A stretch of 32,000 nucleotides of DNA from Acaryochloris marina S15. Lineage in GTDB: Bacteria > Cyanobacteriota > Cyanobacteriia > Thermosynechococcales > Thermosynechococcaceae. Position numbers and translations under genes: made by a program. Below, piece by piece: positions 9,508-28,359 of the stretch (position 1 is the first letter of the stretch; each line of letters opens with the position of its first letter). The notes below the pieces were generated by a model. The model saw nothing but the letters and a program-made list of their open reading frames with translations. It was not told the DNA's origin and ran no database searches. The DNA lies in the NCBI RefSeq assembly GCF_018336915.1, contig NZ_CP064923.1, positions 900,001 through 932,000 on the forward strand, in the 5' to 3' direction.

Positions 9508-12079
9508 TGTAGCGGAACCGAACTATCGGTATCAAGTCGGAGGCAGCCTGCCCGCTTCGGCCCCCAGCTATGTCACCCGAAAGAGCGACAACACCTTCTA
9601 TGACCATCTACAAAACGGCGAATTCTGCTACGTGCTTAATTCTCGCCAGATGGGTAAATCCAGCTTACGAGTGCAAACAATGCACAAGCTGCGTGGGGAG
9701 GATGTTGTCTGTGCAGCCATTGACCTGACCGGCTTTGGCACCCAGGGCATCACCCCAGAAAAATGGTATGGCGGTTTTATCAAAGCCCTCGTCAGTGACT
9801 GCCAACTAGACCTAAACTGGCGAGCCTGGTGGAAACAGCAAGATCCGGCGACTCCGGTACAGCGGCTGCATACATTTATCGAGCAGGTTTTACTCCCAGG
9901 GATTCCGCAAAGCATCGTCATTTTTATCGATGAAATCGATCTGATTCTTAGCCAGAACGTATCCGCTGATGATTTTCTGGCATTGATACGGTTCTTCTAC
10001 AATCAGCGGGTGGATCGACCCGCCTATCGACGCCTCACCTTTGCTCTGCTAGGGGTAGCTACGCCTTCTGCCCTGATGAAAGACCATGAGCGGACGCCCT
10101 TCAATATTGGCCAAGCCATCTATCTAGAAGGGTTTCAGTTTCAAGAAGCTCTCCCCCTCTCTCAGGGCTTTAGAGGTAAGGTTCAAGACCCCGACCAGGT
10201 GCTCCATGAAATCCTGGACTGGACTGGAGGACAGCCCTTTCTGACCCAAAAGCTCTGTCAACTTATGGAGTCATCCCTTCGGTCAAATCCTGAAATCACA
10301 GTAGAGCAGGTGGTTCAAACTCAGATTCTGGAGAACTGGGAAGCTCATGATGAGCCAGTGCATTTGAGAACGATTTGCGATCGCATCCTCTGTAACGATC
10401 ATAAATCGGTACAGCTCTTGGGGCTTTACCAAAAGATTACGAACAGCAAGGTCACCACTAAAAGCAGCCCTGAGCAAATTGAGCTGCGCCTATCAGGTCT
10501 GGTGAAAGACCAAGCTGGAACCCTACAGGTCTATAACCGCATCTATGGTCAGATCTTTAATCAACACTGGATTGAGGCAACCCTCCTAGATTTACGCCCC
10601 TATGCCTCTGCATTTAATGCTTGGGAACAATCTCACTCCCAGGCAGATAAGCTCCTGGAGGGCAAGGCCCTAAAACAAGCGCTCAACTGGGCCGTGGGCA
10701 AAAGCCTCAGCGATCAAGACTATGACTTTATTCGCCTGAGCCAGGTCAAAGCAGAGCGAGAAAAACTACAGCGCAACATTTTCCTGCGGAACTTGCTGAC
10801 GGCTGTGGGCTTGGGAGGATTATTGATTGGAGGTCTTATCTGGGGTAGCGATCGCTGGCTAGCGGATCAAAACCAGCAAGCCCTAACAACGATAACGACA
10901 CTCCATAAACAAGTCGCTCGGGCCAAGCGAAATCAAAATCAAACGGAAGCTCTCTTTCTCGCCATTCAAGCAGGGCAAAAACTCCGCAACCTAGTTCAGG
11001 AGCAACCAATTGCTAGCTATCCCACCACCACACCCCTACTGGATCTGCAACAACTCTTGAAAGACCAAGAACGGCCAGACTCCAAGCAGAAAAAAGAAGA
11101 CCGCTGGAATCTAGAGACTCTGAAAGAAGAGGCGATCTGGGATTTAGATATTAGCCCGGATGGAAAAACCATTGCCGTCTCCGGTTGGGGCAGTTCGGTC
11201 CGCCTCTTACAAAACAGTCGCCAACAGGAACTCACCCATCCCGATTCAGAGATGGTGATCAGCACGGACTTTAATCCCAAAAAGGATCAGGTCGTCACCG
11301 CCTCTCTCAATGGCAATGTTCGCCTCTGGTCCACGTCTGGGCAAGCCCTCCAACATTGGAACACCCAACAAGATGCCATTTGGAATACTCGCTTTAGTCC
11401 CAACGGCCAGTACCTCGCCACAGCAGGATGGGATGGCACCGTTCGCCTCTGGGATTTAGAGGGAACGCAGCGGTTTCAGACTTCACAAAAACACCAAGGC
11501 CCCGTTAAGGATATTCGCTTTAGCCCCGATGGCAAATGGCTGGCTACCGCAGGGGAAGATGGTGCTATCCAACTTTGGCAACTGTGCTTAGGAGCTAACT
11601 GCTCAAAATCGGATGACGCTCAATCCCTGGACCTTCACAAAATATGGAAAGGACATAGCGGTTGGGTTTGGAGTCTAGATGTCAGTCCTGATAGCAAAAT
11701 CCTGGTTTCTGCTGGCGAAGATGGCATTGTTCGATTTTGGGATCTTGATAATCCGAATACCCCACCCCAACGATGGCAATACGGGCAAGGCCGTATCACT
11801 CAAATTCGCTTTAGCCCCGATGGCCAGTGGTTAGCGATTAGCGGCTGGGATGGAACGGTACAGATCCGCGATCGCAACGGCAGAATTTTTTCTCAATGGC
11901 AAAGCCGTCGCCCAGTCACGAGCCTGAGCTTTACCCCCGATCAACAAATGCTTTTGGTGGGAACCGTTATGGGGGATGTCCATCAATGGCCCATTAACTC
12001 TCTCGATCAGCTTCTCAAGGAAGGATGTCAAACCCTTAAAACACTTAACGCCACCCAGGCCAACAAAGTGTGTTCCTAG
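9494..12079 (+). CDS. AAA_35-type P-loop NTPase (STAND-like) + TM-like helix + 7 WD40 repeats
   Basis: YQVGGSLPASAPSYVTRKSD..GEFCYVLNSRQMGKSSLRV (P-loop) and SIVIFIDEIDLI (Walker B) form the pfam AAA_35-type signature. A hydrophobic segment LLTAVGLGGLLIGGLIWG lies at aa 433-451. Seven blades of the type FSPDGxxLAtaGxDGtvrLWd span aa 545-833. Confidence 0.8.
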   Translation: MRSHNVAEPNYRYQVGGSLPASAPSYVTRKSDNTFYDHLQNGEFCYVLNSRQMGKSSLRVQTMHKLRGEDVVCAAIDLTGFGTQGITPEKWYGGFIKALVSDCQLDLNWRAWWKQQDPATPVQRLHTFIEQVLLPGIPQSIVIFIDEIDLILSQNVSADDFLALIRFFYNQRVDRPAYRRLTFALLGVATPSALMKDHERTPFNIGQAIYLEGFQFQEALPLSQGFRGKVQDPDQVLHEILDWTGGQPFLTQKLCQLMESSLRSNPEITVEQVVQTQILENWEAHDEPVHLRTICDRILCNDHKSVQLLGLYQKITNSKVTTKSSPEQIELRLSGLVKDQAGTLQVYNRIYGQIFNQHWIEATLLDLRPYASAFNAWEQSHSQADKLLEGKALKQALNWAVGKSLSDQDYDFIRLSQVKAEREKLQRNIFLRNLLTAVGLGGLLIGGLIWGSDRWLADQNQQALTTITTLHKQVARAKRNQNQTEALFLAIQAGQKLRNLVQEQPIASYPTTTPLLDLQQLLKDQERPDSKQKKEDRWNLETLKEEAIWDLDISPDGKTIAVSGWGSSVRLLQNSRQQELTHPDSEMVISTDFNPKKDQVVTASLNGNVRLWSTSGQALQHWNTQQDAIWNTRFSPNGQYLATAGWDGTVRLWDLEGTQRFQTSQKHQGPVKDIRFSPDGKWLATAGEDGAIQLWQLCLGANCSKSDDAQSLDLHKIWKGHSGWVWSLDVSPDSKILVSAGEDGIVRFWDLDNPNTPPQRWQYGQGRITQIRFSPDGQWLAISGWDGTVQIRDRNGRIFSQWQSRRPVTSLSFTPDQQMLLVGTVMGDVHQWPINSLDQLLKEGCQTLKTLNATQANKVCS
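9496..9503. repeat. HIP1 octamer GCGATCGC (representative; all copies are listed in evidence)
   Basis: Perfect copies seen by eye at 1351, 6312, 9346, 9496, 10377, 10848, 11868, 15071 and 26459 (start coordinates). I found none between 15079 and 26458. This copy sits inside the 14-nt overlap of the two NTPase genes. Confidence 0.8.
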
Positions 12080-13763: not shown

Positions 13764-14444
13764 ATGAATCGCACAAAAACAGTCGTCAGAGCCACCTGGA
13801 ATTGGCTATGGGGGAAGCCAATCGAGGCAGGGGGCGAAATCGCAGCCCAAGTCAGTGAAGACAGCATTGACGATCTCACCCAGGCTTTTCAAACCCTCGT
13901 AGATTCGGTGGGGCTACAAAAGGGCGCATTAGCTGAGGCACTTCGATTACATGATGAGACCGAGCAACAGGTGAAATCCCTCAGTGACCAAGCGGAGCAG
14001 CTAGTGGCTGCCGGTGAAGATGATGCCGCCCTGGCCGTATTAGCCGAACTGGATGTTCTAGAAGAGTATCGTCCACAGCTAGAAGAACAGGTGTTATTTG
14101 CCAAACAAACCTTAGCGGAAGGAACAACCCGTATGAAAGAGGCCCAGTTGGAGCTGAGAAAGATGCAGGCCCAGCAAAAAATGGGGGCTTCGACCATGCG
14201 GGTCACCCAAGCCTTAGAGCGGGCTAACCAAGCAGCTGGCATCGATAACCAATCAGCGATGCGACGGTTTGAAAAATCCCAAGAAGCTATCAAGCGGCGC
14301 AATATCCAAGCCCAGGCCACCTCAGAAGTACAGGGAGAGCTTAAGGGAACATCCAGAGCGATTAAATCCCTCCATGCCCAAGATCGCCTCGCCCAACTGA
14401 AGGCGAAACAAGCCACCAACACTGCAGAAAGCAAGGACCAATAA
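13764..14444 (+). CDS. PspA/IM30 (Vipp1)-family coiled-coil protein, divergent
   Basis: Predicted all-helical protein of 226 aa with a Trp-rich amphipathic N-terminus TVVRATWNWLWGK. The central block AEQLVAAGEDDAALAVLAELDVLEE matches the PspA hallmark A..AL..G.E.LAR.AL..K. The C-terminal SAMRRFEKSQEAIKRRNIQAQA...RLAQLKAK parallels E. coli PspA [21 protein letters not shown]...QLAQLKAK. Confidence 0.6.
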   Translation: MNRTKTVVRATWNWLWGKPIEAGGEIAAQVSEDSIDDLTQAFQTLVDSVGLQKGALAEALRLHDETEQQVKSLSDQAEQLVAAGEDDAALAVLAELDVLEEYRPQLEEQVLFAKQTLAEGTTRMKEAQLELRKMQAQQKMGASTMRVTQALERANQAAGIDNQSAMRRFEKSQEAIKRRNIQAQATSEVQGELKGTSRAIKSLHAQDRLAQLKAKQATNTAESKDQ

Positions 14445-14446
14445 GA

Positions 14447-15988
14447 ATGACAGTTAAAAGAAAAGGTTTACCCCCCATCGCCTATATCGGTGCCGCATTA
14501 CTCATATGTGGGGGTGGATATATGAGCTTTAACGCCATCAAATTGGGAGAAAATTCTCCCCTAACTCAACTCGTCTATGGCAATGAAGCCAGACAGCTGA
14601 CTGTACTGGGTGACACCTTCTCCGGCTACAGCACCTTGCGAGCCGATCCCTTCGCTGCCAAAATCACTCAGGCTGACCTTGGCATTCGGTATCAGGATGA
14701 ATTCGATCAAGCCGCTAGAGCAAAAGCCCTCGGTCGTGAAGCTGACATTATTGTCACCACGCTGGATCAGTATCTGAAGCATCAACCTGAAGGCCGTATC
14801 GTCGGCCTCATTGATAAAACTGTGGGCGCGGATGCCGTGGTCCTCAATACCCAGCAATATCCTCAACTGAAAGGTTTGAATGATATTGCCAAGGTGCGCG
14901 CCTCCGCCTCGGCTCCCCTGAAGTTGGTTTACTCTGCAGGCACCCCGAGTGAATATTTGGCCAAGCTGCTGGATTTGAAGTTTGAAGGGTTAAGCTTGTC
15001 GGATTTTGAAGTGGTGGAAGTGGAAGAATCCACCCAGGCTTATGAATTGTTGAAGTCTGATACGCAGGTTGCGATCGCAATCCTCTGGGAACCCTTCGTT
15101 TCCAAAGCCCGCAAAGAGGGCAACACCGTAGTTCTCTCTAGTAGCGATGTACCCGATGCCATTATTGACGTCATTGTTGCCAGCGATCAGCTAATTCAAA
15201 ACCGTCCCAAAGATCTAAGCCAATTTCTCACCCTCTATTACCAACATACGGATCAGTTAATTCGTGATTCAGGTGTCCTCAGTCAACAAATTGGCAAAGA
15301 TGGCAATCTATCCCCCCAGGATGCCACTTCAGTATCTAATGGCATCGACTTCTTTACTGCTCTAGAAGCCAATCAATGGATGAATTCTGGCACCTTAGCC
15401 AAGCGAATTGAAGCCACCTCAGCGGTCCTCTCTCTCACAGGGGAAACAGCAGGGTTGGTCAAAAATCCTCGTAACCTCTATACCCAAGATTTTATGGCCC
15501 AGGCTGTGACCCATTCGAAACAAGTGGTGGCATCCATCGCCACCACGGATCCCGAGTTAGCCAAAGTACTACGAGGTCAGAAGTCTTCGACCATCAAAGC
15601 TAAGGTCACCCCACAGCAAATTCAAGCAGCTCCGAAGGTGGGTAATTTCAAGGTCAGAGGCGAGGTTAAATTTGCCACGGGTTCAGCGGCGTTGTCGGGA
15701 GACAGCCAATCCACCCTGAAGGCTCTCGCTCAAGAAATCAACGAATTCAATCCCAGTACCATTGCCGTGAACGTGGTGGGGCACACCTCAAAGACGGGGT
15801 CTGCTGCCACGAATCAGTCCTTGAGTCAGCAGCGAGCCCAGGTTGTGGCTAATTACCTCCGGTCTCAAGGTGTCCAGCCAAATCTGGTGGCAGAAGGCAA
15901 AGGGTTTTCTGAACAACTCCCAGGAGTTAACCCCGCTAGCCCTGCACAACAGCGTACAGAAATCCAGCTCAGGCGAGTAGGGGGATAG
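14447..15988 (+). CDS. Membrane-anchored protein: N-terminal TM + SsuA/TauA/NMT1-like periplasmic-binding-protein domain + C-terminal OmpA/MotB peptidoglycan-binding domain
   Basis: TM helix IAYIGAALLICGGGYMSF (aa 11-28). A PBP-like middle spans aa ~50-330. The OmpA_C signature FATGSAALSGDSQSTLKALA..VVGHTSKTGSAATNQSLSQQRAQVVANYL..GKGFSEQLP spans aa 403-511. The start is 3 nt after the stop of the PspA-like gene. Confidence 0.7.
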   Translation: MTVKRKGLPPIAYIGAALLICGGGYMSFNAIKLGENSPLTQLVYGNEARQLTVLGDTFSGYSTLRADPFAAKITQADLGIRYQDEFDQAARAKALGREADIIVTTLDQYLKHQPEGRIVGLIDKTVGADAVVLNTQQYPQLKGLNDIAKVRASASAPLKLVYSAGTPSEYLAKLLDLKFEGLSLSDFEVVEVEESTQAYELLKSDTQVAIAILWEPFVSKARKEGNTVVLSSSDVPDAIIDVIVASDQLIQNRPKDLSQFLTLYYQHTDQLIRDSGVLSQQIGKDGNLSPQDATSVSNGIDFFTALEANQWMNSGTLAKRIEATSAVLSLTGETAGLVKNPRNLYTQDFMAQAVTHSKQVVASIATTDPELAKVLRGQKSSTIKAKVTPQQIQAAPKVGNFKVRGEVKFATGSAALSGDSQSTLKALAQEINEFNPSTIAVNVVGHTSKTGSAATNQSLSQQRAQVVANYLRSQGVQPNLVAEGKGFSEQLPGVNPASPAQQRTEIQLRRVGG

Positions 15989-15992
15989 GCTG

Positions 15993-16433
15993 ATGGCGGA
16001 GTCTTTGCGCCAAGCTTACCAGCGCTTTGGCGGTATCAAGCAGTCTGAGGTGCCTTGGATTATCTGGCTCTTAGAAAATCCGGCTAGTCCCCTCGCCCTG
16101 GCCGGGGCAATTCCCCTGAAGGAACATGACTACCTGCACCTTTTGCTTAATCGGGGGAAGTCTCCAGAGGATGAAGCATTTATTATTGGCTTTACGATGG
16201 GTAATGATACCGCCCTAAACCCCTTTCACCTCTGGGTGTTTAAGTTCGCCTCTCGGTTTCTGTACCCCCAGGACTACCGATTCACTCAGCATCATTGCGA
16301 CATTTTTGATGCTGGGGTCAAGCAGGGAAAACAACTGCCAACCAAAAATTTATGCCGCTTTGATTTTTCATCAATTGAAGAGGAATCCTTAGAGGTATTG
16401 AGAGGTGTACTTAAAATTGATCAAATTCTGTAA
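15993..16433 (+). CDS. Small soluble hypothetical protein with an HDxxH...E motif (weak Coq4-like resemblance)
   Basis: 146-aa ORF starting 5 nt after the preceding stop. KEHDYLHLLLNRGKSPEDEAFIIGF resembles the HDxxH-(x)n-E metal-binding motif region of Coq4-family proteins, but the protein is much shorter. The assignment is tentative. Confidence 0.45.
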   Translation: MAESLRQAYQRFGGIKQSEVPWIIWLLENPASPLALAGAIPLKEHDYLHLLLNRGKSPEDEAFIIGFTMGNDTALNPFHLWVFKFASRFLYPQDYRFTQHHCDIFDAGVKQGKQLPTKNLCRFDFSSIEEESLEVLRGVLKIDQIL

Positions 16434-16639
16434 GGGAAGACAATACAATCACTATTTGTGAAGTGAGCAATTCAGAATAGCGACTCATAACGAAAAAATC
16501 GTAATCGTTTAGGTCAAAATATAGGCTCAACCAGTGTTTCAGGGAGTGAGCCTAGTCAAAAGATAGACACTGAACAGGTTCATATAGGGTTTTATACATC
16601 AGTTTGTTGTATAACCTGAATTATCCATACAAACTATCC

Positions 16640-18172
16640 ATGATGAAAATATTCGTCGGTTCCTCAAGCGAGGCGGGTCTTGTCGATACTGAAGTCCGGA
16701 AGATTCTTGAAGACCAAGACACTCTCCCCATTGACTGGCGAACTCAATTTAGAGCAGGTGAATTTGGTCTTGAGTCACTCATTCGCATCAAGGGTGAATG
16801 TGATGCCGCGATTTTGATAACCACTCCAGATGACAAGATTTGGTATCGCGGGGCTGAAGGTTTCAGTCCCCGAGACAACCTCTTATTCGAACTAGGACTT
16901 TTTATAAGTGCATTGGGTCGCGAGCGTGTTGGGCTAGTTGTCGCAACCAACCAAAATGGGGACGTTCCTAAGATACCAACCGACTTAGCAGGACTAAATT
17001 ACGTATACTACAAGGCGGGAAAAAATGCTGGTAACACTGAGGCAATAACTAAATGGGTCTTGCATCTTCGAAAGCTTGTTGGCTCGGGCGTTAAGAGCTT
17101 TGAGAACCCTTTCGATGTTCTTGAAAGTCAGTTTTCAAGACTCCCGCAGGATTGGAAGGATGACGTGGAGAACTATATCATTGAGCCGTTCCGAGACCAA
17201 AGTTATTCAGCGCTACGAGGCGAGTTTACTCTCGATATTTCCCAGTACTACAACTCCCTTTTCACTGCATTATCGTCTATCGCAGGGACTGATATTCGGA
17301 TCAAAGCGGTTAGCCTCCTCTCACACGAAATTTGGGACTCGGACCCGTTTCAGCTTCAGTATCAAGACTACAACCTGCAAGCTGGCAAAGAGGGCGTTCC
17401 AATTCAACGAATCTTCGTGATCAATGACGGAGTTGAACCAAGTTTGTGGGCAACTATTCAAAAGCAACTTGAAAACAACATTCAGGTTAAGGTTGTAGAT
17501 GCTCGTCTGTTTTCTAAGTTCGCAAACCTTGACGACATCGTGCTCTTGCAAGGTACTGCTTATTCACGGTGTTATAAGTCACAGCAGTTTTTCAATGCTA
17601 CAAATCGACTCAAATCAGCAAACCTCAATCTAAACACCAACTATTGCAACGATCTTTCGCTATCGTTTGATGCTCTTTGGAAATTGGCAAAGCAGCCCAC
17701 GCCAAATATTGTACGAATGCAGCAAAAGTCAATCGCCCCTCCCGGCGATACATTTGAAATATACGATCTTGATCATGATGTGATTACATGCGAACAGGCT
17801 GCAGAAGCTAAAGCAATTCCACTACAGAATGAATTGAAAACTATAGTTACAAAAACATCAAACGGGATAATTGCACTGCATCTACGTGGAGATAGACAGA
17901 TATACTGGCGGGCGGTCAAGAACATTCTTGATGTTAAAGAGGCCGAAATGCTTTCAAAGGAAGACTTAGCAAAGCTCCACTTGTCTGACGGAACAGTTTC
18001 TGCGATTTTGGACCCCGTCTGGAGCATGGCGCATCTAATCTCACGCGAGGTGATACAACTCGATTTTGTCTCCACTAACAATTCAACCCGAAGGCAGTAC
18101 TTTAGGTTTGACCCTTTGGTACTCTTGAGTACAGCAAAGCACATGATTGGCTCGTTTGAAAAACAGGTATAA
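16640..18172 (+). CDS. Three-domain protein: Cap12/PycTIR-type TIR-like domain (PF10137/COG4271-like) + unassigned ~200-aa middle domain + YbaK/ProX-like (aminoacyl-tRNA trans-editing fold) C-terminal domain
   Basis: The ORF track starts at TTG 16604. ATG-ATG at 16640/16643 directly precedes KIFVGSSSE, which is where this TIR-like family normally begins. The TIR-like block is KIFVGSSSE..DAAILITTPDD..SPRDNLLFELGLFISALGRERVGLV..PTDLAGLNYVYY. The YbaK-like block is ITCEQAAEAKAIPLQNELKTIVTKTSNGIIALHLRGDRQIYWRAVKNILDVKEAEMLSKEDLAKLHLSDGTVSAIL..HLISREV..YFRFDPLVLL. Confidence 0.7.
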   Translation: MMKIFVGSSSEAGLVDTEVRKILEDQDTLPIDWRTQFRAGEFGLESLIRIKGECDAAILITTPDDKIWYRGAEGFSPRDNLLFELGLFISALGRERVGLVVATNQNGDVPKIPTDLAGLNYVYYKAGKNAGNTEAITKWVLHLRKLVGSGVKSFENPFDVLESQFSRLPQDWKDDVENYIIEPFRDQSYSALRGEFTLDISQYYNSLFTALSSIAGTDIRIKAVSLLSHEIWDSDPFQLQYQDYNLQAGKEGVPIQRIFVINDGVEPSLWATIQKQLENNIQVKVVDARLFSKFANLDDIVLLQGTAYSRCYKSQQFFNATNRLKSANLNLNTNYCNDLSLSFDALWKLAKQPTPNIVRMQQKSIAPPGDTFEIYDLDHDVITCEQAAEAKAIPLQNELKTIVTKTSNGIIALHLRGDRQIYWRAVKNILDVKEAEMLSKEDLAKLHLSDGTVSAILDPVWSMAHLISREVIQLDFVSTNNSTRRQYFRFDPLVLLSTAKHMIGSFEKQV

Positions 18173-18435
18173 CGCCGAATGAACTTGGATAATAAAAAAA
18201 TGGGTAGTCATAGTCCTGTAAGGATGCATTGTAGTAGTGGATAAACATTCTTGAGAATTACTTATAAAGTGAAATTAAAGACGCCTTGCAATCGATACTG
18301 GGCAATAAAAATAGCGTTTATAGCCTAGGGCAAGCTCAGAGTTGCCTTTCATAAGCACCGATGCAGAGTTAATTGCAATCCATCTTTTTGCGAAATCAAA
18401 AAGTGGAGCCGAAAGGCTATGAAATTAATTTTATT

Positions 18436-20200
18436 CCTACATTCAGCAGGCTAGCTAGCAGAGCAGATAATATTTTTTACAGCCCTTCCCAAGGAACGGC
18501 AAGATAAGTTGCTGCCTGCTGTTGAGCTTGATGAGATGCTTGGCACCATCAAGCCAAACTAAATGGACGGCCTGAAAGCATTGGAGAATCCAACGTAACG
18601 TAGGTTTCATAGTTTGTTTCCCCTTCTGATTAGGGAGAGTTGTTTGTACTTGTTCTAGTGCATTTCTTAACTGTCGTTGTCCTAAGCTGTAGACCATCAA
18701 ACACAAGGCCATGATCATGGCTAAGGCAGCGATACGCCGAGGTGTCTTCAGGAAAACACTAGAGGCAAAGAAGAGTGGATCTTTGATAAAGCGAAAGCCT
18801 CCTTCACACGCCTGCTGGTTCTTATACTCGCGCAGAATATCATCATTGCTCCATTGCTCTTGTTCCAAGAGATTGGTGGCTAAGATGAAACGACCTGCTT
18901 GCCGCCGATAGCGTTCGATGACTGGCTCATTGAGGGTTAAGGTAGCCTCAATAGAATAGGTGTAGTGAGTCACAACCGTTGCTTTTGTCGGTCGTCCAGC
19001 CTTTGAATAATGAGGTTTTTTGTGGATTTTGAGATCGTCAAGGGTGTGATACCTGAGGATTTTGCCAAAATCTTGGGCTGCAGCTAAAGCATCTGCAGGG
19101 CACAAGAAGGTCTGTTTGCAGAGGGTTTTAAGTGCAGTAGTTTTTTGGCTAAACGCCTGATCAATCCGCTTTTGCACTTGTTTGAGTCCAGAGTCTCTGC
19201 GAGCTTTACTTTCAACCACCAGCCACCGTTGTTGAATCTCTCCATAGGTACTACATACTTCGACAAAGCTATAGCCGTTGAGAGCACTGGGGTGAAACTG
19301 TGAACCCGGCAGCCCTTGTAATAAGTCTTGGGCTGCCGTTGAACTTGCTGGAACTCGGCTAATCCAAGATGTACTTCCTAATGCTTGCAGATTGTCGGCA
19401 CTGTAGAGGGCACTATCAGCAACAATCACCTCTGGCTGTTGCTGACTCCACTGTTGCTTAAATTCATGGATGATAGGCACAAACGTACTTTTGTCCGCAT
19501 CATTACCGTTGCCCACTTGTAAAAATAAAGGAATACCCCCGTCCCCACTCACCAGTAGGTTCAATACAAACTGCTTGAGATCACGACGATTGTCCCGTGA
19601 GTAGCCGTAGGTGATTTTCACGGGTATCGGCTCCTCTGATTCAGCCAGTGCAGGGGAGGGGGACTCAGGTGCAGAGGGGGATTCGTCTGACGCCTCAACC
19701 TGTGGTTTATCTAAGTATTGCCCCTCAACACTAAGGCTTGTCGCATCTAGATGCGCACACCTTAGAGCTACATCGAATTTCTGAACGACTGCCATTGCCA
19801 CATGGATAAATATCTGGGTCACACCATAGGCATAGAGCTTGTCGAGGACTCGACCGATACGGGTATCGTTGAGGTGCTCTGGCAGTACACCTTGACCGAG
19901 TAAGTGCTCGGTTGCTTTGCTTTCGAAAAACTCACTAAATAAGTACAATGGAGCACTCAAAAAGCCCATACCATTTAGAATCAGGGCTTTGACAACTTGA
20001 CCACAACTAACATTCTCTTGCTCGTGAGTACCTAATAATCGATCCACTATTTCGACAATGCCGATCTCATCGACGATACCGGCAATAATACCGAGATGGT
20101 CAATATCCTGAACGTCTATCTCTTGAGGTGAATACATGGACTTGCGTTGAGAGACAACCTCAAAATTATCCCTTGATGGTTAGTACCTGCTGAATGTCGG
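18436..20200 (-). mobile_element. Complete IS4-superfamily (IS1634-like) insertion sequence, 1765 bp
   Basis: The terminal inverted repeats are CCTACATTCAGCAGG (18436-18450) and CCTGCTGAATGTCGG (20186-20200), matching 14/15. A perfect 6-bp direct repeat TTTATT flanks the element (18430-18435 and 20201-20206). It contains a single transposase ORF. Confidence 0.85.
18455..20137 (-). CDS. DDE transposase, IS4 superfamily / IS1634-like
   Basis: 560 aa. The N-terminal block DIDHLGIIAGIVDEIGIVEIVDRLLG..VSCGQVVKALILNGMGFLSAPLYLFSEFF is characteristic of this transposase group. DDE-type motifs include VIVADSALYS. Confidence 0.8.
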   Translation of the reverse strand: MYSPQEIDVQDIDHLGIIAGIVDEIGIVEIVDRLLGTHEQENVSCGQVVKALILNGMGFLSAPLYLFSEFFESKATEHLLGQGVLPEHLNDTRIGRVLDKLYAYGVTQIFIHVAMAVVQKFDVALRCAHLDATSLSVEGQYLDKPQVEASDESPSAPESPSPALAESEEPIPVKITYGYSRDNRRDLKQFVLNLLVSGDGGIPLFLQVGNGNDADKSTFVPIIHEFKQQWSQQQPEVIVADSALYSADNLQALGSTSWISRVPASSTAAQDLLQGLPGSQFHPSALNGYSFVEVCSTYGEIQQRWLVVESKARRDSGLKQVQKRIDQAFSQKTTALKTLCKQTFLCPADALAAAQDFGKILRYHTLDDLKIHKKPHYSKAGRPTKATVVTHYTYSIEATLTLNEPVIERYRRQAGRFILATNLLEQEQWSNDDILREYKNQQACEGGFRFIKDPLFFASSVFLKTPRRIAALAMIMALCLMVYSLGQRQLRNALEQVQTTLPNQKGKQTMKPTLRWILQCFQAVHLVWLDGAKHLIKLNSRQQLILPFLGKGCKKYYLLC

Positions 20201-20472
20201 TTTATTCATCTGCTTATCTTAGTTAGACCTGGTTTAAGATTCACTTTCTAAATAGCCTCTTATAGAACTAAAACTATCCGAAAAGGAATAAGAGTTTGCT
20301 TAAGCAGATACTCAAATCACTGTTCTCCCATAAACTCTCGATTCGCCATCAAATACTAGAACTATCGATAAAAAAATAACTATTAGCATTCATCCAGGAA
20401 GTCGATGTCCTCTGTTGGAGTTACCCTTTCTATTACAGAAAATCAGCCCCACATAATACCTTAGAAGGAAAA

Positions 20473-21579
20473 ATGGATCATAGAATTTTACTAATCACAA
20501 CTGGAGGAACAATCGGAGGTAAGTTGGCTGCTGATCAGCAAGATGAACAGATGATAAGAAGCGCTGACCAGTTTGCAATGCTCCTTGGAGACACAATTGC
20601 ATATCTCAGTAAAAAGTATGGTCTTAAAATTGAAATTGATACCATTGAGTTATGTGATATTGATAGTTCGGATATTAATCACGAACATTGGATTCAGTTA
20701 GCCGAAACAATACGAGATAAATATGATGAATATGAGTCCTTCATTATTACTCATGGAACAAATACTCTAGGATATACAGCTGCTGCTCTCTCCTTTGCCA
20801 TAGCGAACTCTAGCAAGCCAATCATTCTTACCGGTTCCCAAGTGCCAGCAGGATTACCTGGTACAGATGGTTTAGCCAATCTGCAGAATGCTTTGCGAGT
20901 AGCTATTTGGAGGCAAGATGGACAACCCATTAAAGGCGTGGTAGCAGTCTTTGGTAGTCATATTATTGCTGGTACAAGACTTAAAAAAGACACAGAATTT
21001 GGTTATGATGCTTTCAAGTCATTTAAAATCGGAAATATAGGTCAAATTGGCAGAATTATTGACATCAACGAGAACAATCTCAAGAAACATGTAAGCTATC
21101 TACGTTCTGGTCTTTATCCTGAAGCAAAAAAAGCTAAAGATTTACACTGTGAGATTGATTTTGATATGCGTATTGCATCATTAACAGAGTTTCCTGGAAT
21201 GCGCTCCGAAATATTTTCAATTCTTGTTGAAAAGCACAATATTAGAGGAATCATTCTAAGAGCATTCGGTGCTGGAGATCCATGTACTAAACACCTTGAA
21301 GCATTTAAGTATTTAAAGAGAGAGAAAATTCCAATCGTGATTACTACTCAAGCTCCAAATGGAAACAGTAATTTCCAAGTGAATGAGCCAGGAAAGTTAT
21401 TGCTTGAAAATAATTTAGCAATCCCCGCATATGATATGAGTATCGAGTCTCAGACTACCAAGTTAGCCTGGCTTTTAGCAAAAGTAAAGAAAGCTGATTT
21501 AGGTTACTCGGAACTTTGTAGAGAGATGGTGAATGACATTAGGGGTGAGGTAAAAGTTCTCTGGGAAATAGGTATATAA
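20473..21579 (+). CDS. Type I (cytoplasmic, AnsA/GatD-like) L-asparaginase-family protein
   Basis: ILLITTGGTIGG (nucleophile Thr loop), FIITHGTNTLGYTAAALSF (HGTDT motif with D replaced by N), PIILTGSQVP, and a C-terminal domain GIILRAFGAGD. The gene is strongly AT-rich relative to its neighbours. A good SD (GAAGGA) precedes the ATG. Confidence 0.85.
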   Translation: MDHRILLITTGGTIGGKLAADQQDEQMIRSADQFAMLLGDTIAYLSKKYGLKIEIDTIELCDIDSSDINHEHWIQLAETIRDKYDEYESFIITHGTNTLGYTAAALSFAIANSSKPIILTGSQVPAGLPGTDGLANLQNALRVAIWRQDGQPIKGVVAVFGSHIIAGTRLKKDTEFGYDAFKSFKIGNIGQIGRIIDINENNLKKHVSYLRSGLYPEAKKAKDLHCEIDFDMRIASLTEFPGMRSEIFSILVEKHNIRGIILRAFGAGDPCTKHLEAFKYLKREKIPIVITTQAPNGNSNFQVNEPGKLLLENNLAIPAYDMSIESQTTKLAWLLAKVKKADLGYSELCREMVNDIRGEVKVLWEIGI

Positions 21580-21608
21580 ACTTCGTCTAGTTTGAGACCC
21601 GTATTTTT

Positions 21609-22983
21609 GTTAGTGTCCCTATTTATTCGCCACGGTTTTTGAGGCGATCATGCTTGGCATGATCCCTACGAGAGACGAGAAAGAAAATCGCTAAACAGCT
21701 CTCCTCATTTGGGAAAGCACCAATTTCGTCAGCCTTGGTTCGGAATTTCCGGAACAGCCTTTCTAGCGCATTGGAAGTACGAATCAGCGAATGAAGGGAT
21801 TCATCAAAATCATAGAAACTCAAGGTCAGGGCAAAATCTTTGATGAAGGTTCTAACAGCATCGGGTTCAAGGTCTGTCCATTTCTGTGCAAACACGAGCA
21901 ACGTCACAATCGCTTCTTCCCAGTCTGGCGCTTTATAGATAGCATAGGCATCGTGTTTAATTTGTGAATATCGCAGCTTCTTTGCTTCAGAGTGGGAGAG
22001 TTCTTGTCCTTGAGCATCCAGGTGTGGCAATTGCTCATAGCCCAAATGCCGGAGCATCGCTCGAACCTTGTGGGTAATGCATCGTTGATGTTGTGCGAGG
22101 GGAAACAGAGCGCGAATTACCTTAGGTAGTCCAGTGGTGCCATCACTGACAATCAGCTTCACCAAATGGGTTTGCAATCCTCGGTGCCGCAGGTGCTCAA
22201 AGAACAGTAGCCAGGCTGCCTCAGATTCTTGGACAGCCATTTCGTAATGAAGAACGGTTTGTGTCCCATCTGGCCATATCGCCATGGCCACTAAGATGAC
22301 TCGGTCTTCCGCACGACGTAGCTTCCGGATATGTCCAGCTTGGTCTTCCCAAAAGTCTTCGGAGGCGCATTGAACACTCGCCCACACTCCATCAACAATC
22401 AGAATAAAAGGGGTTTTCTCAAGACGAGTTTGACGACTTTGGAGCATTTGCTTCTGAGCTTTGAGAGTAATCCGGTTAATGGCATTCACGGATAAAACTG
22501 CTCCCAGGATCTCATAGAGAGCTTCTTGCAAGTCTCGAAGCGATAAACCCATGACATACAAGCCCAGGCAAAACTCTAGAAGGCTACCGAGGGCTCGTTG
22601 GTAACGCTCTAGAATCTTCCACTCTCGGTCTGCATTCCCTTTCCGTAGTTTCGGGACAGATAGTTGAGCAATCCTGCCGTACTGGGTATCAAGAACCCGC
22701 TGATAATAGCCTGAACGTCGAGGGCGAGTCCCTTGAAGCTCTGATAGATAAGCTTGGACTTCTTCGTCTAGTGCTGACTCTACTGCTATCTGGGTAACTC
22801 GGTTAGCCTCAAGGCGCAGGGTTGCTTCTAAAGCTTTGTTAATAGAGGCATATGAACTTTGAGACTGGATACGGATAATCTGCTGCTCACGTTGGGAAAT
22901 GTTCATCAAGGAGTGCTCCGAATTCTCTATTATCAGAGCATTTCAGCTATTCCAGCTCATGGCGAATAAATCAAGACACTAAC
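21609..22983 (-). mobile_element. Complete IS256-family insertion sequence, 1375 bp
   Basis: The inverted repeats GTTAGTGTCCCTATTTATTCGCCACG (left) and its partner (reverse complement GTTAGTGTCTTGATTTATTCGCCATG) match 22/26. A perfect 8-bp target duplication GTATTTTT lies at 21601-21608 and 22984-22991. Confidence 0.9.
21623..22909 (-). CDS. IS256-family (mutator-type) transposase
   Basis: 428 aa. Typical blocks are PFILIVDGVWASV, VILVAMAIWPDGTQTVLHYEM, LIVSDGTTGLPKVIRALFPLAQHQRCITHKVRAML and SNALERLFRKFRTKADEIGAFPNEESC. Confidence 0.9.
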   Translation of the reverse strand: MMNISQREQQIIRIQSQSSYASINKALEATLRLEANRVTQIAVESALDEEVQAYLSELQGTRPRRSGYYQRVLDTQYGRIAQLSVPKLRKGNADREWKILERYQRALGSLLEFCLGLYVMGLSLRDLQEALYEILGAVLSVNAINRITLKAQKQMLQSRQTRLEKTPFILIVDGVWASVQCASEDFWEDQAGHIRKLRRAEDRVILVAMAIWPDGTQTVLHYEMAVQESEAAWLLFFEHLRHRGLQTHLVKLIVSDGTTGLPKVIRALFPLAQHQRCITHKVRAMLRHLGYEQLPHLDAQGQELSHSEAKKLRYSQIKHDAYAIYKAPDWEEAIVTLLVFAQKWTDLEPDAVRTFIKDFALTLSFYDFDESLHSLIRTSNALERLFRKFRTKADEIGAFPNEESCLAIFFLVSRRDHAKHDRLKNRGE

Positions 22984-23046
22984 GTATTTTTCCTTCTCTA
23001 ATTGAAGCTGAGTTGTGACCCATAAATGGTCCGATACTGCAATGGG

Positions 23047-23079
23047 TTAATGATGGAGTTGCGTCACAAACAGTTCAAC
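23047..23079 (-). pseudogene. IS630-like relic, downstream half (last 7 codons + stop, plus one copy of the 9-bp TSD)
   Basis: Deleting 23080-24565 and one CAGTTCAAC copy joins ..ITQVEL to FVTQLHH* in the same frame. Confidence 0.4.
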
Positions 23080-24565
23080 GGGCGTATTTAGCGGATCGGG
23101 GATGCCTTAGTTTTCGGAATGGTCACCTCTGGGAATAAGGAGTCAAACCGTTCATTGACCCAGGCAATTCTCAAGATCAGTAAATGGTTGAAACCATCCT
23201 CACTCCAGCGCATGCCAACTCCCTTAAAGCGCTGCTGAATCAACCACTTGCATGCACTTTCAACCATTCCTGACCCGAGAGGAATCTGTTGCTGTTCAAA
23301 GTGCCGATAACGGATGTGGTTATGATGGCGTTGGAAATAAGCCTGCACCTGGAGCAACGTTGAAAAAGACTTTCCCGTTAACAGTTGTGAGTGAATCAAT
23401 ATCGTCAAGGACCGTAATACAAGTAGGTGTTGCCCGTGTCGCAATTGGTGTCGCCAGTGCCGGAACCAGGCTTGGGCTTGAGCAGAGCGGGCATCTCCAA
23501 ACATCGCTTTAGTTGCTCGTGCCAGATGGCCTGCTGAATGAAAAAAGTCGAGGACTGCCACAGCACAATGAGAGAACAAGGTGCGATAGACTCGCCAGAA
23601 GCCTCGTCCCCCATCACTGAGCCAGATGACTTTTGGAGCAGATTCAAAGTCTTGTTTGTGAGCTTCGAGTTGAAGTAAAGGGATGAACTGGTCGATATCG
23701 CCCAATACTGCCACCAGTCTTCGACGCAGTAATTGGGGGACCTCCTTTTTAGCTCGGGTAACCCGTGTTCCCAGGCGAGCTAAGATGGCGACTTTGACTT
23801 CTCGCCACTGGATTTTTCCCTTGGGTGAGTTCGGGGTGGGGCGAAAGGGGACCATCACACCATCGGCGGCAATGGCCAAAGGTAGAGCAGATAACATCTC
23901 TGAAATCGCTTCACAAGGGGCCTGAGTCCCTGATGATTGAGCGTTGAGTTGAGCTTCTAATTCCTGCTGAGCTTTGTTACCCACGGATTGCACCCAGTTC
24001 CACAAACTGGATGGACTCACGGATAGACCACTCCACTGACCCAGCATCCAACTGGCCAGTTCATAGGGCATGAACAGACTCAACAAGCAGCCCAGACGCA
24101 CCAGTTCTTCGCTGCTGTGCTGATAGGGGGCAATCCCAATGGCTTGATCCAGGGGAGTCAACAGACTGCCTGGACATCCTTTGGGACAACGGCCCACCCG
24201 TCGCTTTCAAGAGATAGTGCCTACCAGTGTCTGCATCTGACGAGATTCCCATCCCTTCGAATGTAAGCGGGTTCCGCAGGTAGTACATACAGGCCATACA
24301 AATACTGCTTTCGCGCGCCTTGAGAGTTCATCCTCCAGAAGACAGCGAGCTAGAAACAAGCCCATTTGCAGAACGATATAAACCATCTGACTCAGGCTGG
24401 TTGATACTTTGAGTGCTTCAGTTTGTTCTAGAAATTCGTCATGGGCTAGCACGGTTAGCAATTGCGATGGTAGGGTCATGATAGTTTTTTGGTTCGGGTA
24501 CAGGATCTATTGTCCTTGACCCGTTTTTCTTTGAGCCATGCATCCCCGATCCTTTGCTTACGCCC
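23080..24565 (-). mobile_element. ISKra4-like insertion sequence, 1486 bp, inserted into an older IS630-like relic
   Basis: The terminal repeats are GGGCGTATTTAGCGGATCGGGGATGC (23080-23105) and the reverse complement of 24540-24565, GGGCGTAAGCAAAGGATCGGGGATGC. They match at 7+13 outer/inner positions. A perfect 9-bp direct repeat CAGTTCAAC flanks the element (23071-23079 and 24566-24574). Confidence 0.7.
23088..24479 (-). pseudogene. ISKra4-like DDE transposase interrupted by one in-frame TGA (codon at 24209-24207)
   Basis: The two track ORFs (24207..24479 and 23088..24197) are in the same frame. Read-through gives ..CTTCGTRLHSKGWESRQMQTLVGTIS*KRRVGRCPKGCPGS.. as one 463-codon frame. DDE-like blocks are IAADGVMVP, WLSDGGRGFW and GSGMVESACKWLIQQRFKGVGMRWS. 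Confidence 0.7.
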
Positions 24566-24661
24566 CAGTTCAACTTGAGTGATCAAGTGTTTCTTTTTTT
24601 TATCACAAGCATGATAAGCTACATCCTCTCGTAGCCATTGCCACAGATGTTCAACAGGCAT
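24566..24661 (-). pseudogene. IS630/Tc1-mariner-like transposase C-terminal relic, upstream half (split by the ISKra4-like insertion)
   Basis: It reads ..PVEHLWQWLREDVAYHACDKKKKHLITQVEL. The NP(V/I)EhLW..LK motif carries the catalytic E of IS630-type transposases. The frame is closed 9 nt upstream by a stop, and further upstream sequence is decayed. The 61-aa track ORF 24476..24661 is a chimera that runs into the ISKra4-like terminal repeat. Confidence 0.45.
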
Positions 24662-25014
24662 GCAGTGAAATTACCTTCGGCTCTTAACTACATCCTCAAA
24701 GGGGAACTTCTTCACCATCTACCTAACGGCTCCTAGGGAGCATAGACCTCTTGTAAGATTCAGTTCACGATATGCTAGAGACTCAATTCATGAGCCAATG
24801 CTTCCTGTATATTTCGGTCCCTATCTATGTCACGGAACCAATGATGCAAGAGGTCTACTATTTGTCAACGGTCTGGATCGTTGTGCATATGTCTTCGGTA
24901 AGTAAGGTAAACGGGTCTGAATAACAGTCGTATACCACCTGAAATTTTTTCCTCCTCATGGTTTCAGACCACAGCCTTGGTTGCCATAGGCCATTGAGAT
25001 TCACAATATTGAGT

Positions 25015-26937
25015 TTATTGTTCTATCTGGGTAAGATCAGACTCTGTGGAAGTTTGTCCCTTGGCGAGCTGCAAATCCTCAGCAACTTGGGGATAGCGAG
25101 GCTTCAAGTCATAGGCCGTTTCCAAATGGGGAATCGCTGCCGATGGTTTATTTTGCTGAAGCAACGCTTTTCCTAAGCCATGCAATGCCTCAACGTTGTT
25201 GGCATTGAGTTGAGTTGCCCGTTCAAAATCGGCAATAGCTGCATCCACCTTGCCTTGTGCCAAGAACGCTAACCCCCGCCCGCTGAAGAATTGGTGAGTA
25301 AAAAATAAGTTACGGGGCTGCAGTTTCAGCGCTTTTTCATAAGCCGGAATCGCCTGATCAGGTTTGCCTTGCCGACGTAGAATATTCCCCACAGCAAAGT
25401 GACCTACCGCAAAATCGGGATCGAGCTGAACCGCCTGCCGATAATGCTGTAATGCCAAGTCATATTGTTTCAGGTCAAAGTAAATCTGCCCCATTAAAGT
25501 TTCCACCCTCGCTTCTGGAGTAGTATCAAGACCCATCATATCCAGTGGGAACAAGTCCTTTTTTAAAGTTGTTTGCAGAATCTGACGAGCTTCTTGCTTT
25601 TGGCCCGATTGGAGCAGAACATTACTGAGAGTAATCGCCATAAAAGGACTATCTGTAGGGCCAGCTTGACGGAGAACTTTCAAAGCTGCCTCTACTTGGC
25701 CATTTCCGGCCAATGCACTGCCAAGATTGACTGCGAGGGCCTCTGCCCCGAAAGTGCTTGGATTCGCATTGTAAAGATCTTGTGCCCGATTTAGAACGGC
25801 AATGGCCTCATCCCAACGCTCTAATTCGGCGAGCACCACCCCCAATTCATTCAATGTACGGGCATCTTTGGGTTGTAGAGCCGCAAGCTTTTGATATGCA
25901 TCAACCGCAGGTTCTAACCGATTCAGTTTTTTAAGAGCTGTCGCTAACCACTTGTAAGCATCTGCATCTAACTTGGCATCATTCTGTTGAGAAGAAGAGT
26001 TTGAACCTAAAAATTGCCGATATTGAGAAAAAGCTCCCTCGAAATCTTCCTTTCGAATCAGGGCATCACCGATTAGAGCATGGGTAGCCTGGCTTTTAGG
26101 GGAGAGTTTCAGCTGCTGAGAATAGTTGGCAATCGCTTCATCCCAACGTCTCTGCAATGAATAGTTTTGTCCCAAGACTAAATAGGCATCTGTGTATTGC
26201 AAATCAAGGGCAATGGCATTTTCCAGAAACGGTACTCCTCGTTTTAACTGCTTAGTCGTAGTTAAGAACTTACCCACACGAAAATAAGCCCGAGCGTTGA
26301 TTTGCCTAGGAGTCAATGATGTTGATTTTTTTAATAGAACTGCCTGGCGAAAAGACTTCAAGGCCAGTTCAAATTTTTTGGCTTTCACTTGAGTTTGGCC
26401 CAAGTTGTTCCAAATTGCAGCATTCTTGGGCGTGAGTCGGGTCGCGTAATCGAAGGTTGCGATCGCACGTTCCAGTTCCCCTACCACAACCAAATTTTCA
26501 CCTAACTCATTGTAGGCAAGCCCATCAATTTCTTTAGCAGAGAGCGTCTTAGATTTAGATTGATGATATTGACGGTAAATATTGAGGGCTTGGGTGAGTT
26601 TTTGCTGTCTAACTCGGACTCTAGCAATATCGAACTGGTACTGGGCATGCCAGCTTTGCAAGGTCTTCCCCCGTTCAAAAGCGGCAATCGCTTCATCAAA
26701 TTTTTGACAGTTTTCGAATGCCTGCCCCAGAGCGTGATATCCCCCCGCAATTTCATGCTTGGGGGTTTTGGCTAAAGCCTTTTCCAGATCTGCCTGCATC
26801 CCAGTCCAGTCCTGGGCACATTCTGCTTCCGTCGGTGGTGGAAACGGTGGAAACGCAAGTTGTAGTTTTAACTGAGCCCGACTGGGCATTGCCGATAAAG
26901 CCAAGACTAATGCAAGGGGCAGCGTAAATCGACGCAT
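25015..26937 (-). CDS. Secreted/periplasmic TPR-repeat protein
   Basis: Signal peptide MRRFTLPLALVLALSAMPSRA|Q, then about 15 or more 34-residue TPR-like units (recurrent A..Y..A..L.P....A...LG pattern) over 640 aa. Confidence 0.85.
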   Translation of the reverse strand: MRRFTLPLALVLALSAMPSRAQLKLQLAFPPFPPPTEAECAQDWTGMQADLEKALAKTPKHEIAGGYHALGQAFENCQKFDEAIAAFERGKTLQSWHAQYQFDIARVRVRQQKLTQALNIYRQYHQSKSKTLSAKEIDGLAYNELGENLVVVGELERAIATFDYATRLTPKNAAIWNNLGQTQVKAKKFELALKSFRQAVLLKKSTSLTPRQINARAYFRVGKFLTTTKQLKRGVPFLENAIALDLQYTDAYLVLGQNYSLQRRWDEAIANYSQQLKLSPKSQATHALIGDALIRKEDFEGAFSQYRQFLGSNSSSQQNDAKLDADAYKWLATALKKLNRLEPAVDAYQKLAALQPKDARTLNELGVVLAELERWDEAIAVLNRAQDLYNANPSTFGAEALAVNLGSALAGNGQVEAALKVLRQAGPTDSPFMAITLSNVLLQSGQKQEARQILQTTLKKDLFPLDMMGLDTTPEARVETLMGQIYFDLKQYDLALQHYRQAVQLDPDFAVGHFAVGNILRRQGKPDQAIPAYEKALKLQPRNLFFTHQFFSGRGLAFLAQGKVDAAIADFERATQLNANNVEALHGLGKALLQQNKPSAAIPHLETAYDLKPRYPQVAEDLQLAKGQTSTESDLTQIEQ

Positions 26938-28301: not shown

Positions 28302-28359
28302 AATAGCCTCCATCATAGCGGGCGAAGGCAGTGGGTGGGACATCCCCCCCAATCCCCCA

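Follow-up and report, generated by a model that had tools for sequence, protein, structure and literature searches.

The stretch of DNA considered here (hereafter the window) comprises 32,000 nucleotides of Acaryochloris marina S15, positions 900,001 to 932,000 of contig NZ_CP064923.1. Near its middle lies a gene (16640..18172, + strand) whose product joins an N-terminal TIR domain, a PLD-like middle domain and a C-terminal YbaK-like domain, followed on the same strand by a gene of the asparaginase family (20473..21579), with an insertion sequence (IS) between the two; that the two genes take part in defence against phages is a plausible reading. The TIR gene is intact, and its open reading frame (ORF) exists as the preliminary description of this DNA had read it, open from a TTG at 16604 to 18172 and 522 amino acids (aa) long. 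The true start is likely to be the ATG at 16640, as the resulting 510-aa product is 100% identical to an NCBI entry, "TIR domain-containing protein [Acaryochloris marina]", and homologues begin with MKIF. A total of 32 full-length homologues align with the window protein from end to end. The AlphaFold2 (AF2) model of the whole protein reaches a predicted local distance difference test score (pLDDT) of 86.7, and Foldseek searches with it retrieve the SfSTING TIR domain and the ProX and YbaK structures.

The TIR domain (16646..17014, aa 15-137 of the 522-aa ORF) matches the Pfam family PF10137 (CAP12-PCTIR_TIR) with E=9.4e-25 and 87.4 bits, against a cutoff of 24.7. The PADLOC models for TIR effectors and PycTIR match within aa 13-159 and nowhere else in the protein (E=1e-31 to 1e-23), the TIR domain scoring E=8e-23 against the PycTIR model, while the NCBIfam Cap12 equivalogs cover only the N-terminal ~150 residues and reach 70 bits against a 450-bit cutoff. 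Searched against the PDB, a profile of the 32-homologue family finds Cap12 (7un8, 9lmq) and PycTIR (8jsj) with E-values of 1e-21 to 1e-27, the PycTIR structure 8jsj being matched at E=4.5e-21. The motifs GSSSE (16658-16672) and PRDN (16868-16879) are present, as is the catalytic glutamate, E96 (codon GAA, 16889-16891), which aligns with E84 of SfSTING. According to the cryo-electron microscopy study of SfSTING, its NAD+ site is made up of S10, R78, N80 and the catalytic E84 (PMC9402430). All four residues are aligned and identical in the window TIR, and across the 32 homologues R78, N80 and G86 (SfSTING numbering) are invariant, with E84 kept in at least 90%. These alignments establish, at the level of sequence, a TIR domain of the Cap12/PycTIR type with a complete SfSTING-type NAD+ site, in agreement with the preliminary description, which had assigned the domain to this type and named E96 as its catalytic residue.

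At the other end of the protein, the YbaK/ProX-type domain (17780..18112, aa 393-503) matches PF04073 (tRNA_edit) with E=8e-10 and 39.3 bits against the Pfam cutoff of 25.5; the pair of families expected in the preliminary description, PF10137 at the N-terminus and PF04073 at the C-terminus, was thus recovered above both curated thresholds. As a single-sequence query against the PDB, the YbaK part found no relative and the family profile was required, which matched the ProX-like protein APE2540 (1wdv) with E=2.6e-9 and aligned K412 with the lysine of its KTL motif. Foldseek returned ProX (2z0k, 2cx5) and YbaK (1dbu) structures with a template modelling score of about 0.78 on the target. The domain contains NELKT (17828-17842, with K412 encoded at 17837-17839), HLRGD (17879-17893) and DGTVSA (17987-18004), and the lysine and the GxV(S/P) loop are conserved in the family. 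It shares the fold, the LKT-motif lysine and the Gly-rich loop with YbaK, ProX and the ProRS-INS domain (PF04073; 1dbu, 2z0k, 1wdv), from which it differs in being highly divergent, in sitting within a TIR protein or a racemase-like fusion, in its clade motifs (NELKT, H-x-R/P-G-D, PVWS) and in a distribution that is not that of a housekeeping gene. With 12.7 bits against the 153-bit cutoff of TIGR00011 (YbaK_EbsC), it is, going by its sequence, not orthologous to YbaK proper.

The fold and the lysine named in the preliminary description are therefore both present, but its suggestion that the YbaK pocket gates the TIR domain has become doubtful. The YbaK-like domain is separable, being encoded in sister cassettes as a separate gene or fused to an Asp/Glu-racemase-like enzyme, and the PLD-like domain is the one that stays with alternative outputs. 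Since it is detachable and sometimes racemase-fused, the YbaK domain may process a signal rather than sense it. No tRNA gene was consistently linked to the system in the family loci examined. Two actinobacterial members have one about 100 bp downstream, tRNA-Gly-GCC (L021:10025-10100) and tRNA-Ser-GGA (L025:11171-11256), positions that would suit the integration sites of islands. In 11 loci (the window and 10 others), the YbaK segment is overlain by antisense ORFs of 90-220 aa, which form one "family" in an all-against-all BLAST comparison; the one in the window (17773-18207, - strand) was rejected as a gene, being a by-product of the conserved sense coding frame.

The region between these domains (17087..17734, aa ~162-377), which the preliminary description could not place, has no significant family in Pfam, NCBIfam or PADLOC, matches to DUF6879 being weak and below threshold, and its assignment comes from predicted structure, as sequence searches alone gave none. 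Modelled by itself with AF2 (pLDDT 87.9, predicted template modelling score 0.82), it takes a PLD-superfamily fold, for which Foldseek ranks the TrmBL2 C-terminal domain first (5bpi, 5.7e-8) and then PLD3, Nuc (1byr), polyphosphate kinase (PPK), NucT, Zucchini and the pseudo-PLD of FAM83; the modelling proposed in the preliminary description thus yielded a fold. The conserved stretches of the domain are QYY (17243-17257) and I-x-R-[IL]-F-V (17402-17419). The family alignment contains no conserved His or Lys in this domain and no HxK(x)4D motif, and PLDc_2 matches 1 of 21 members (E=0.029). As a PLD fold lacking the conserved His and Lys, the modelled domain would be non-catalytic, and thus a putative sensor of a ligand or partner. 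In the TrmB family, non-catalytic PLD-like domains of this sort act as binding modules, and sugar binding is known for TrmB proper. The domain shares with TrmBL2 (5bpi) and the DUF1669 domain of FAM83 a PLD fold minus the HKD motif, and differs from TrmBL2 in having no winged helix-turn-helix and no detectable sequence similarity.

Exhaustive profile searching for the PLD-like domain returned 820 representatives, in which it also stands behind two-transmembrane (2TM), TIR_2, Metallophos and helix-turn-helix (HTH) modules, and the actinobacterial members of the family carry a canonical TIR_2 domain in place of the Cap12-type TIR. The 2TM-PLD-YbaK arrangement is fused in P0238, P0240, P0248 and P0262 and split elsewhere into two adjacent ORFs. 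Fusions of the PLD-like domain with TIR_2, a calcineurin-like phosphoesterase, an XRE-type HTH and 2TM are seen in P0244, P0294, P0284 and the four proteins just named, and further variants lie at L029:9650-11036, L116:9087-10426 and L112:470-1837. The one protein returned by a word-indexed search with the middle-domain profile (P0019) was rejected as a TIR-less variant, being truncated by a contig end.

The asparaginase-family gene encodes 368 aa with matches to PF00710 (3e-47) and PF17763 (1e-18), and belongs to a clade marked by the motif HGTNT. The preliminary description had spoken of a single gene with no partner in view, a judgement that has to be withdrawn: besides the copy at 20473-21579 in the window, an asparaginase occurs in the fetched flanks of 14 of 27 family loci of at least 9 kb, as against 0 of 56 control loci carrying other PF10137 TIR proteins and amounting to 870 kb in total (Fisher p=7.6e-9). 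The TIR and asparaginase genes are separated by gaps of between 4 bp and 4 kb, the partner lying on either strand, and are paired in at least five phyla. When 128 neighbouring genes were surveyed with Pfam, asparaginase turned up 14 times and every other family at most twice. The partner accompanies both of the closest relatives that have usable context. It is found 34 bp upstream of the TIR gene on the same strand in L140, and forms part of an operon with a pyridoxal phosphate (PLP) decarboxylase and a TIR_2-asparaginase fusion in L139. The distance matrices of the TIR proteins and the asparaginases are also correlated (mirror-tree r=0.42, Mantel p=4e-4).

In the window, the pair is split by an intact IS4-like element of 1765 bp (18436..20200, - strand), which encodes a 560-aa transposase with DUF4277 and DDE_Tnp_1 domains (18455-20137, - strand). 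An inverted-repeat search located its 15-bp terminal inverted repeats (18436-18450 and 20186-20200), and direct inspection of the flanks revealed a 6-bp target duplication, TTTATT (18430-18435 and 20201-20206). Without the element the TIR and asparaginase genes would be 529 bp apart on the same strand, and as removal of so clean an insertion leaves such a pair, the two genes appear from the sequence to have been one unit that was split by recent transposition. A promoter and terminator scan stayed at background level and gives no information on co-transcription.

This linkage bears directly on the possibility that the TIR protein is a self-contained sensor and effector, its PLD-like and YbaK-like domains sensing a phage product or a change at the 3' end of aminoacyl-tRNA, with the asparaginase dispensable or modulatory. 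In about half of the loci with good flanks, no asparaginase lies within 10 kb, one member (L004) stands alone inside a dense defence island, the YbaK lysine and GxV(S/P) loop are conserved, and SpbK and DSR2 are reportedly single-protein sensors of the TIR or SIR2 kind. However, where flanks exist the association is very strong, both closest relatives included, and the asparaginase is itself fused to a TIR domain in related cassettes; a detachable, racemase-fused YbaK domain is also more in keeping with an enzyme of a pathway than with a sensor of tRNA, and there is no consistently linked tRNA gene. A protein acting by itself is consequently an unlikely explanation in our view, and we favour a system of at least two genes.

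The active site of the partner is altered. It resembles archaeal type I asparaginases (E~1e-37) and GatD (1e-26), and both domains of the superfamily, the nucleophile motif TGGTI (20500-20514) and the lysine motif TRLKK (20974-20988) are present, but at 20752-20766 the canonical HGTDT reads HGTNT, the Asp of the catalytic triad being replaced by Asn. The same replacement is found in 120 of the 120 closest clusters, which share 60-72% identity across phyla, and in ~17 stand-alone asparaginases that are close relatives and are linked to the family. In two fusions with TIR the motif reads HGANT and HGTNT, and HGTDT survives in a few copies that are more distant. In E. coli AnsB this Asp belongs to the triad Thr89-Asp90-Lys162 and contacts the alpha-amino group of the substrate, and disturbance of the triad by T89V traps the beta-aspartyl-enzyme intermediate. 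As the altered residue is the one that serves in the triad and in substrate contact, the clade is unlikely to consist of plain asparaginases, and from the sequence canonical asparaginase chemistry is doubtful. Compared with type I L-asparaginases and GatD (PF00710), the partner has both domains, TGGT and the lysine in common and is 30-35% similar to the archaeal type I enzymes, while differing in its HGTNT motif, in being embedded in these cassettes every time and sometimes fused to TIR, and in being far more conserved than its neighbours (50-72% identity across phyla, versus 31-56% for the TIR protein).

The full architecture is rare and its distribution patchy. About 37 clusters among 5.8 billion proteins possess it, and it was found in at least about 20 species among 185,579 GTDB species-representative genomes; the matches listed include Acidobacteriota, Bacteroidota, Myxococcota, Actinomycetota, Alphaproteobacteria, Cloacimonadota and Zixibacteria. 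Among the matches listed from the GTDB species-representative scan there is no Acaryochloris, and the gene is for this reason regarded as accessory in its own genus and, to judge from its distribution and composition, horizontally acquired. Sites of the highly iterated palindrome (HIP1) are absent from 15071 to 26459, and the GC content falls from ~48-52% in the flanks to 44% in the TIR gene and 37.5% in the asparaginase gene. Two transposase genes lie in this patch, the second being a Mutator-family transposase (21623..22909, - strand; PF00872, E=4.5e-60) directly 3' of the asparaginase gene, which we take as a boundary of the patch and not as a component of the system. The preliminary description had placed the gene in a HIP1-free, IS-laden patch and considered it an acquired accessory gene, and both statements hold; a housekeeping gene conserved in a syntenic core context, one of the findings that it had said would overturn its proposal, is excluded by the accessory status of the gene and by the HIP1-free, low-GC patch around it.

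Defence context was judged from individual annotated loci, a PADLOC census of the 128 neighbours being dominated by redundant kinase models, and neighbours outside the annotated loci are stop-to-stop ORFs. The neighbours of L004 include SduA_C, NACHT, reverse transcriptase, TIR-kinase and GmrSD genes; L003 has AbiH and an nSTAND NTPase, L002 a ThsB_TIR gene with SLATT, L136 a SIR2_2 gene and L150 a PycTM gene.

The HGTNT asparaginase also leads to a wider family of cassettes. In the four contexts examined where it occurs apart from a TIR-PLD-YbaK gene, the same core was found each time (4/4), consisting of an X-FGE-sulfatase, the asparaginase and a fusion of YbaK-like and Asp/Glu-racemase-like domains. 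X is a KAP NTPase or a class III cyclase-like domain, the latter a weak or faint Pfam hit, and a PLP-dependent ornithine/diaminopimelate/arginine decarboxylase is often located 5' of the core. In L136 and L150/L151 the core is followed by a 2TM protein of ~290-300 aa whose soluble part is the PLD-like domain. The cassettes lie at L136:4001-11779, L137:5756-10698, L138:6470-10529 and L150:4053-10503, and SIR2_2, PycTM and NADAR genes are present near the cassette in some loci. Within the TIR family itself, TIR_2-asparaginase fusions occur in L088, L002 and L139 and YbaK-racemase fusions in L002, L014 and L019. These cassettes appear to be the larger parent family of the two-gene unit of the window, where no YbaK-racemase or FGE-sulfatase gene, nor remnants of either, were found. 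Two further loci (L132:9824-13184 and L134:593-3558) may represent a more distant relative of the pairing, a stand-alone YbaK-like protein of the NELKT clade being followed by an asparaginase-like protein of ~700 aa that has an N-terminal asparaginase domain with canonical HGTDT and a long C-terminal extension. Interchangeable outputs on a constant putative receptor, beside a set of enzymes, are by analogy the arrangement of TIR-STING and TM-STING or of PycTIR and PycTM, here with enzymes of an amino-acid type.

Enzymes of this type would also fit a role outside immunity, in Asn/Asp or D-amino-acid metabolism or in aminoacyl-tRNA quality control, with the TIR-like domain binding nucleotides or acting as a regulator. 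The partners are all amino-acid enzymes (asparaginase, Asp/Glu-racemase-like, PLP decarboxylase, DAO), several loci lie among metabolic genes, and JGI labels members "prolyl-tRNA editing enzyme YbaK/EbsC". A metabolic function is nevertheless hard to reconcile with so sparse and patchy a spread (at least about 20 species among the GTDB representatives), with the foreign composition and IS-flanked position of the region, and with the conservation of the complete set of NADase catalytic residues. The exchange of TIR, 2TM and Metallophos modules on one sensor is characteristic of conflict systems, no asparaginase of the clade keeps the canonical catalytic Asp, and KAP NTPase, FGE-sulfatase and cyclase-like companions occur. 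We therefore hold a non-immune role to be highly improbable.

Among described defence systems, the closest likeness is to TIR-STING (Cap12, SfSTING; 7un8, 9lmq), which shares with the window protein an N-terminal PF10137 TIR domain, the NAD+-site residues and, by analogy, a presumed logic of cue-driven oligomerization followed by NAD+ hydrolysis. Unlike TIR-STING, the window protein has a regulatory part of PLD and YbaK folds instead of a STING domain, and the linked enzyme is an asparaginase homologue rather than a nucleotidyltransferase. No STING or SAVED domain was found in the protein and no CD-NTase (the nucleotidyltransferase of CBASS, the anti-phage systems that signal through cyclic oligonucleotides) among the scanned window ORFs or the annotated loci. 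PycTIR (8jsj) has the TIR subtype and a single-chain design of sensor plus TIR in common with the window protein, but its cyclic-nucleotide-binding domain is N-terminal and its TIR C-terminal, the reverse of the window protein. A PF00027 domain in the protein and a cyclase gene beside family members, which would mark Pycsar, are both lacking; the class III cyclase-like domain is confined to sister cassettes, where it is fused to FGE-sulfatase and is a weak or faint Pfam hit. As the partner and sensor features that define CBASS, Pycsar and Thoeris are absent, we regard the protein, by analogy, as a ligand-gated effector of the Cap12 TIR type that has the TIR subtype and the general logic in common with these systems.

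Thoeris (ThsB and ThsA) deserves closer comparison, being likewise TIR-based, and the richer cassettes pair a ThsB-like TIR_2 protein with a separate effector. The effector TIR is here of the Cap12 type, however, TIR_2 in the relatives is fused to an asparaginase-like domain, and no SLOG or Macro sensor domain was found in the window protein. The TIR_2-asparaginase, or the Cap12-type TIR in minimal systems, could in principle make a conjugate of ADP-ribose (ADPR) and an amino acid that the PLD and YbaK domains receive or hydrolyse. This would accord with the presence of TIR_2-asparaginase fusions in the same operons (L088, L002, L139), with the weak match of their TIR_2 part to ThsB models, and with a YbaK pocket suited to an acyl-ribose-adenine moiety, as in the ProX-AlaSA complex (2z0k). 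Type II Thoeris reportedly uses a His-ADPR signal, a precedent for conjugates of amino acids and nucleotides. But the ThsB-like TIR_2 occurs in some relatives only, the window and many other loci being without the fusion, and the characterized PF10137 TIRs (Cap12, PycTIR) are terminal NADases and not makers of a signal. A Thoeris-like scheme is accordingly improbable.

The architecture was not known to the preliminary description from described systems, and the searches carried out here agree. PADLOC 2.0.0 does not contain it, matching the window protein through its TIR domain alone, and has no models for the asparaginase, the YbaK-racemase, the cyclase-like-FGE-sulfatase or the 2TM-PLD proteins. 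Neither the architecture nor an asparaginase in defence is described in the searchable full-text literature, from which subscription papers are mostly absent, so that this absence is no proof. The text of a 2025 systematic survey covering roughly 30 effector types mentions no asparaginase, PLD or YbaK for any of them, and targeted reading of systematic-discovery papers of 2025-2026 met with no YbaK, asparaginase, DUF6879 or PLD in such a context. Current annotations call members "TIR domain-containing protein", "nucleotide-binding protein", "prolyl-tRNA editing enzyme YbaK" or "L-asparaginase", and such labels conceal the association of the TIR and asparaginase genes.

Taken together, these observations suggest that the TIR protein is probably the effector of an undescribed, horizontally mobile anti-phage system of at least two genes. 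By analogy with TIR-STING and PycTIR, we think it fairly likely that the system acts by abortive infection, a cue perceived through the C-terminal module switching on the TIR domain and NAD+ being depleted. The TIR domain would remain inactive until that module binds the cue, whereupon the protein would oligomerize, hydrolyse NAD+ and arrest the infected cell. Of the two regulatory domains, the PLD-like one would be the likelier receptor because it is present with every alternative output module, and the YbaK-like domain and the asparaginase-like enzyme would make, edit or destroy the cue. In the richer cassettes, the TIR_2-asparaginase, the YbaK-racemase, the PLP decarboxylase and the cyclase-like or KAP-FGE-sulfatase would share in handling it.

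As to the cue itself, we can offer a tentative proposal, by analogy and with a low chance of being right, namely an aminoacyl ester or conjugate of the Asp/Asn type on the ribose of a nucleotide. Such an ester would fit the YbaK pocket (compare ProX-AlaSA, 2z0k), a possible beta-aspartyl intermediate and the His-ADPR precedent. A fuller version, to which we likewise give little credence, is that the window holds the minimal form of a hitherto unrecognized family of immune signalling systems whose messenger does not come from a nucleotidyltransferase or cyclase alone; an acyl-transfer enzyme derived from asparaginase builds it from an amino acid, the PLD domain reads it and YbaK clears it. The HGTNT enzymes would hydrolyse their beta-aspartyl-enzyme intermediate poorly and transfer the aspartyl group onto a hydroxyl of ribose. 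Their product would be read by a non-catalytic receptor of the PLD fold, which carries exchangeable TIR, 2TM or phosphoesterase killers, and would be edited or removed by an aminoacyl-ester hydrolase domain of the YbaK type.

Several points weigh against an anti-phage system of this kind. The loci with no asparaginase within 10 kb (L001, L004, L011, L013, L016, L018, L020, L024, L025, L096 and L119) amount to about half of those with good flanks, so that either the TIR protein is able to act alone or the partner need not be present in cis. In this strain, the IS may have uncoupled the expression of the two genes. For the asparaginase, roles as a sensor, as a second effector (through depletion of Asn) or as a regulator are equally conceivable, and the proposed ligand chemistry is an argument by analogy only. 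L001 and L005-7 lie among ordinary metabolic genes with no defence context, and the viral and plasmid collections yielded TIR-domain matches only, with neither the full architecture nor an HGTNT asparaginase among them.

If a role in phage defence is correct, three folds would be newly tied to immunity, namely YbaK/ProX, the asparaginase clade with an altered site and a TrmB-like PLD without catalytic residues, and a Cap12-type TIR NADase killer would be linked to amino-acid-type chemistry instead of a cyclase or CD-NTase. With an aminoacyl- or aspartyl-nucleotide ester as the messenger, the second-messenger chemistry would be new, as would the immune use of the tRNA-editing and asparaginase folds, and there is a real chance that the cassette family as a whole represents a new signalling chemistry. 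The system is small, two genes in about 2.7 kb without the IS, and directly testable, and the related cassettes provide a comparative series for establishing which gene makes, reads and removes the cue.

Other genes lie on both sides of the pair. On its 5' side, 13764-16433 (+ strand) contains genes for a protein resembling PspA/IM30, with a score below the Pfam cutoff, and for one of 513 aa whose C-terminal domain is OmpA, as well as an orphan ORF of 146 aa, none of which recurs in related loci; the last of these (15993-16433) was considered as a member of the unit and rejected, having no homologue in any related locus. On its 3' side, a 369-aa ORF (23088-24197, - strand) matches nothing in Pfam, and none of the related loci contains a relative. 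A 640-aa TPR protein is encoded at 25015-26937, and genes for RuvB and the RNA ligase RtcB are adjacent at 27186-29544 (- strand). Just upstream of the acquired patch are two overlapping AAA_35 ATPase genes (8179-9507 and 9494-12079, + strand), a STAND-like NTPase pair whose second member (861 aa) adds a WD40 beta-propeller.

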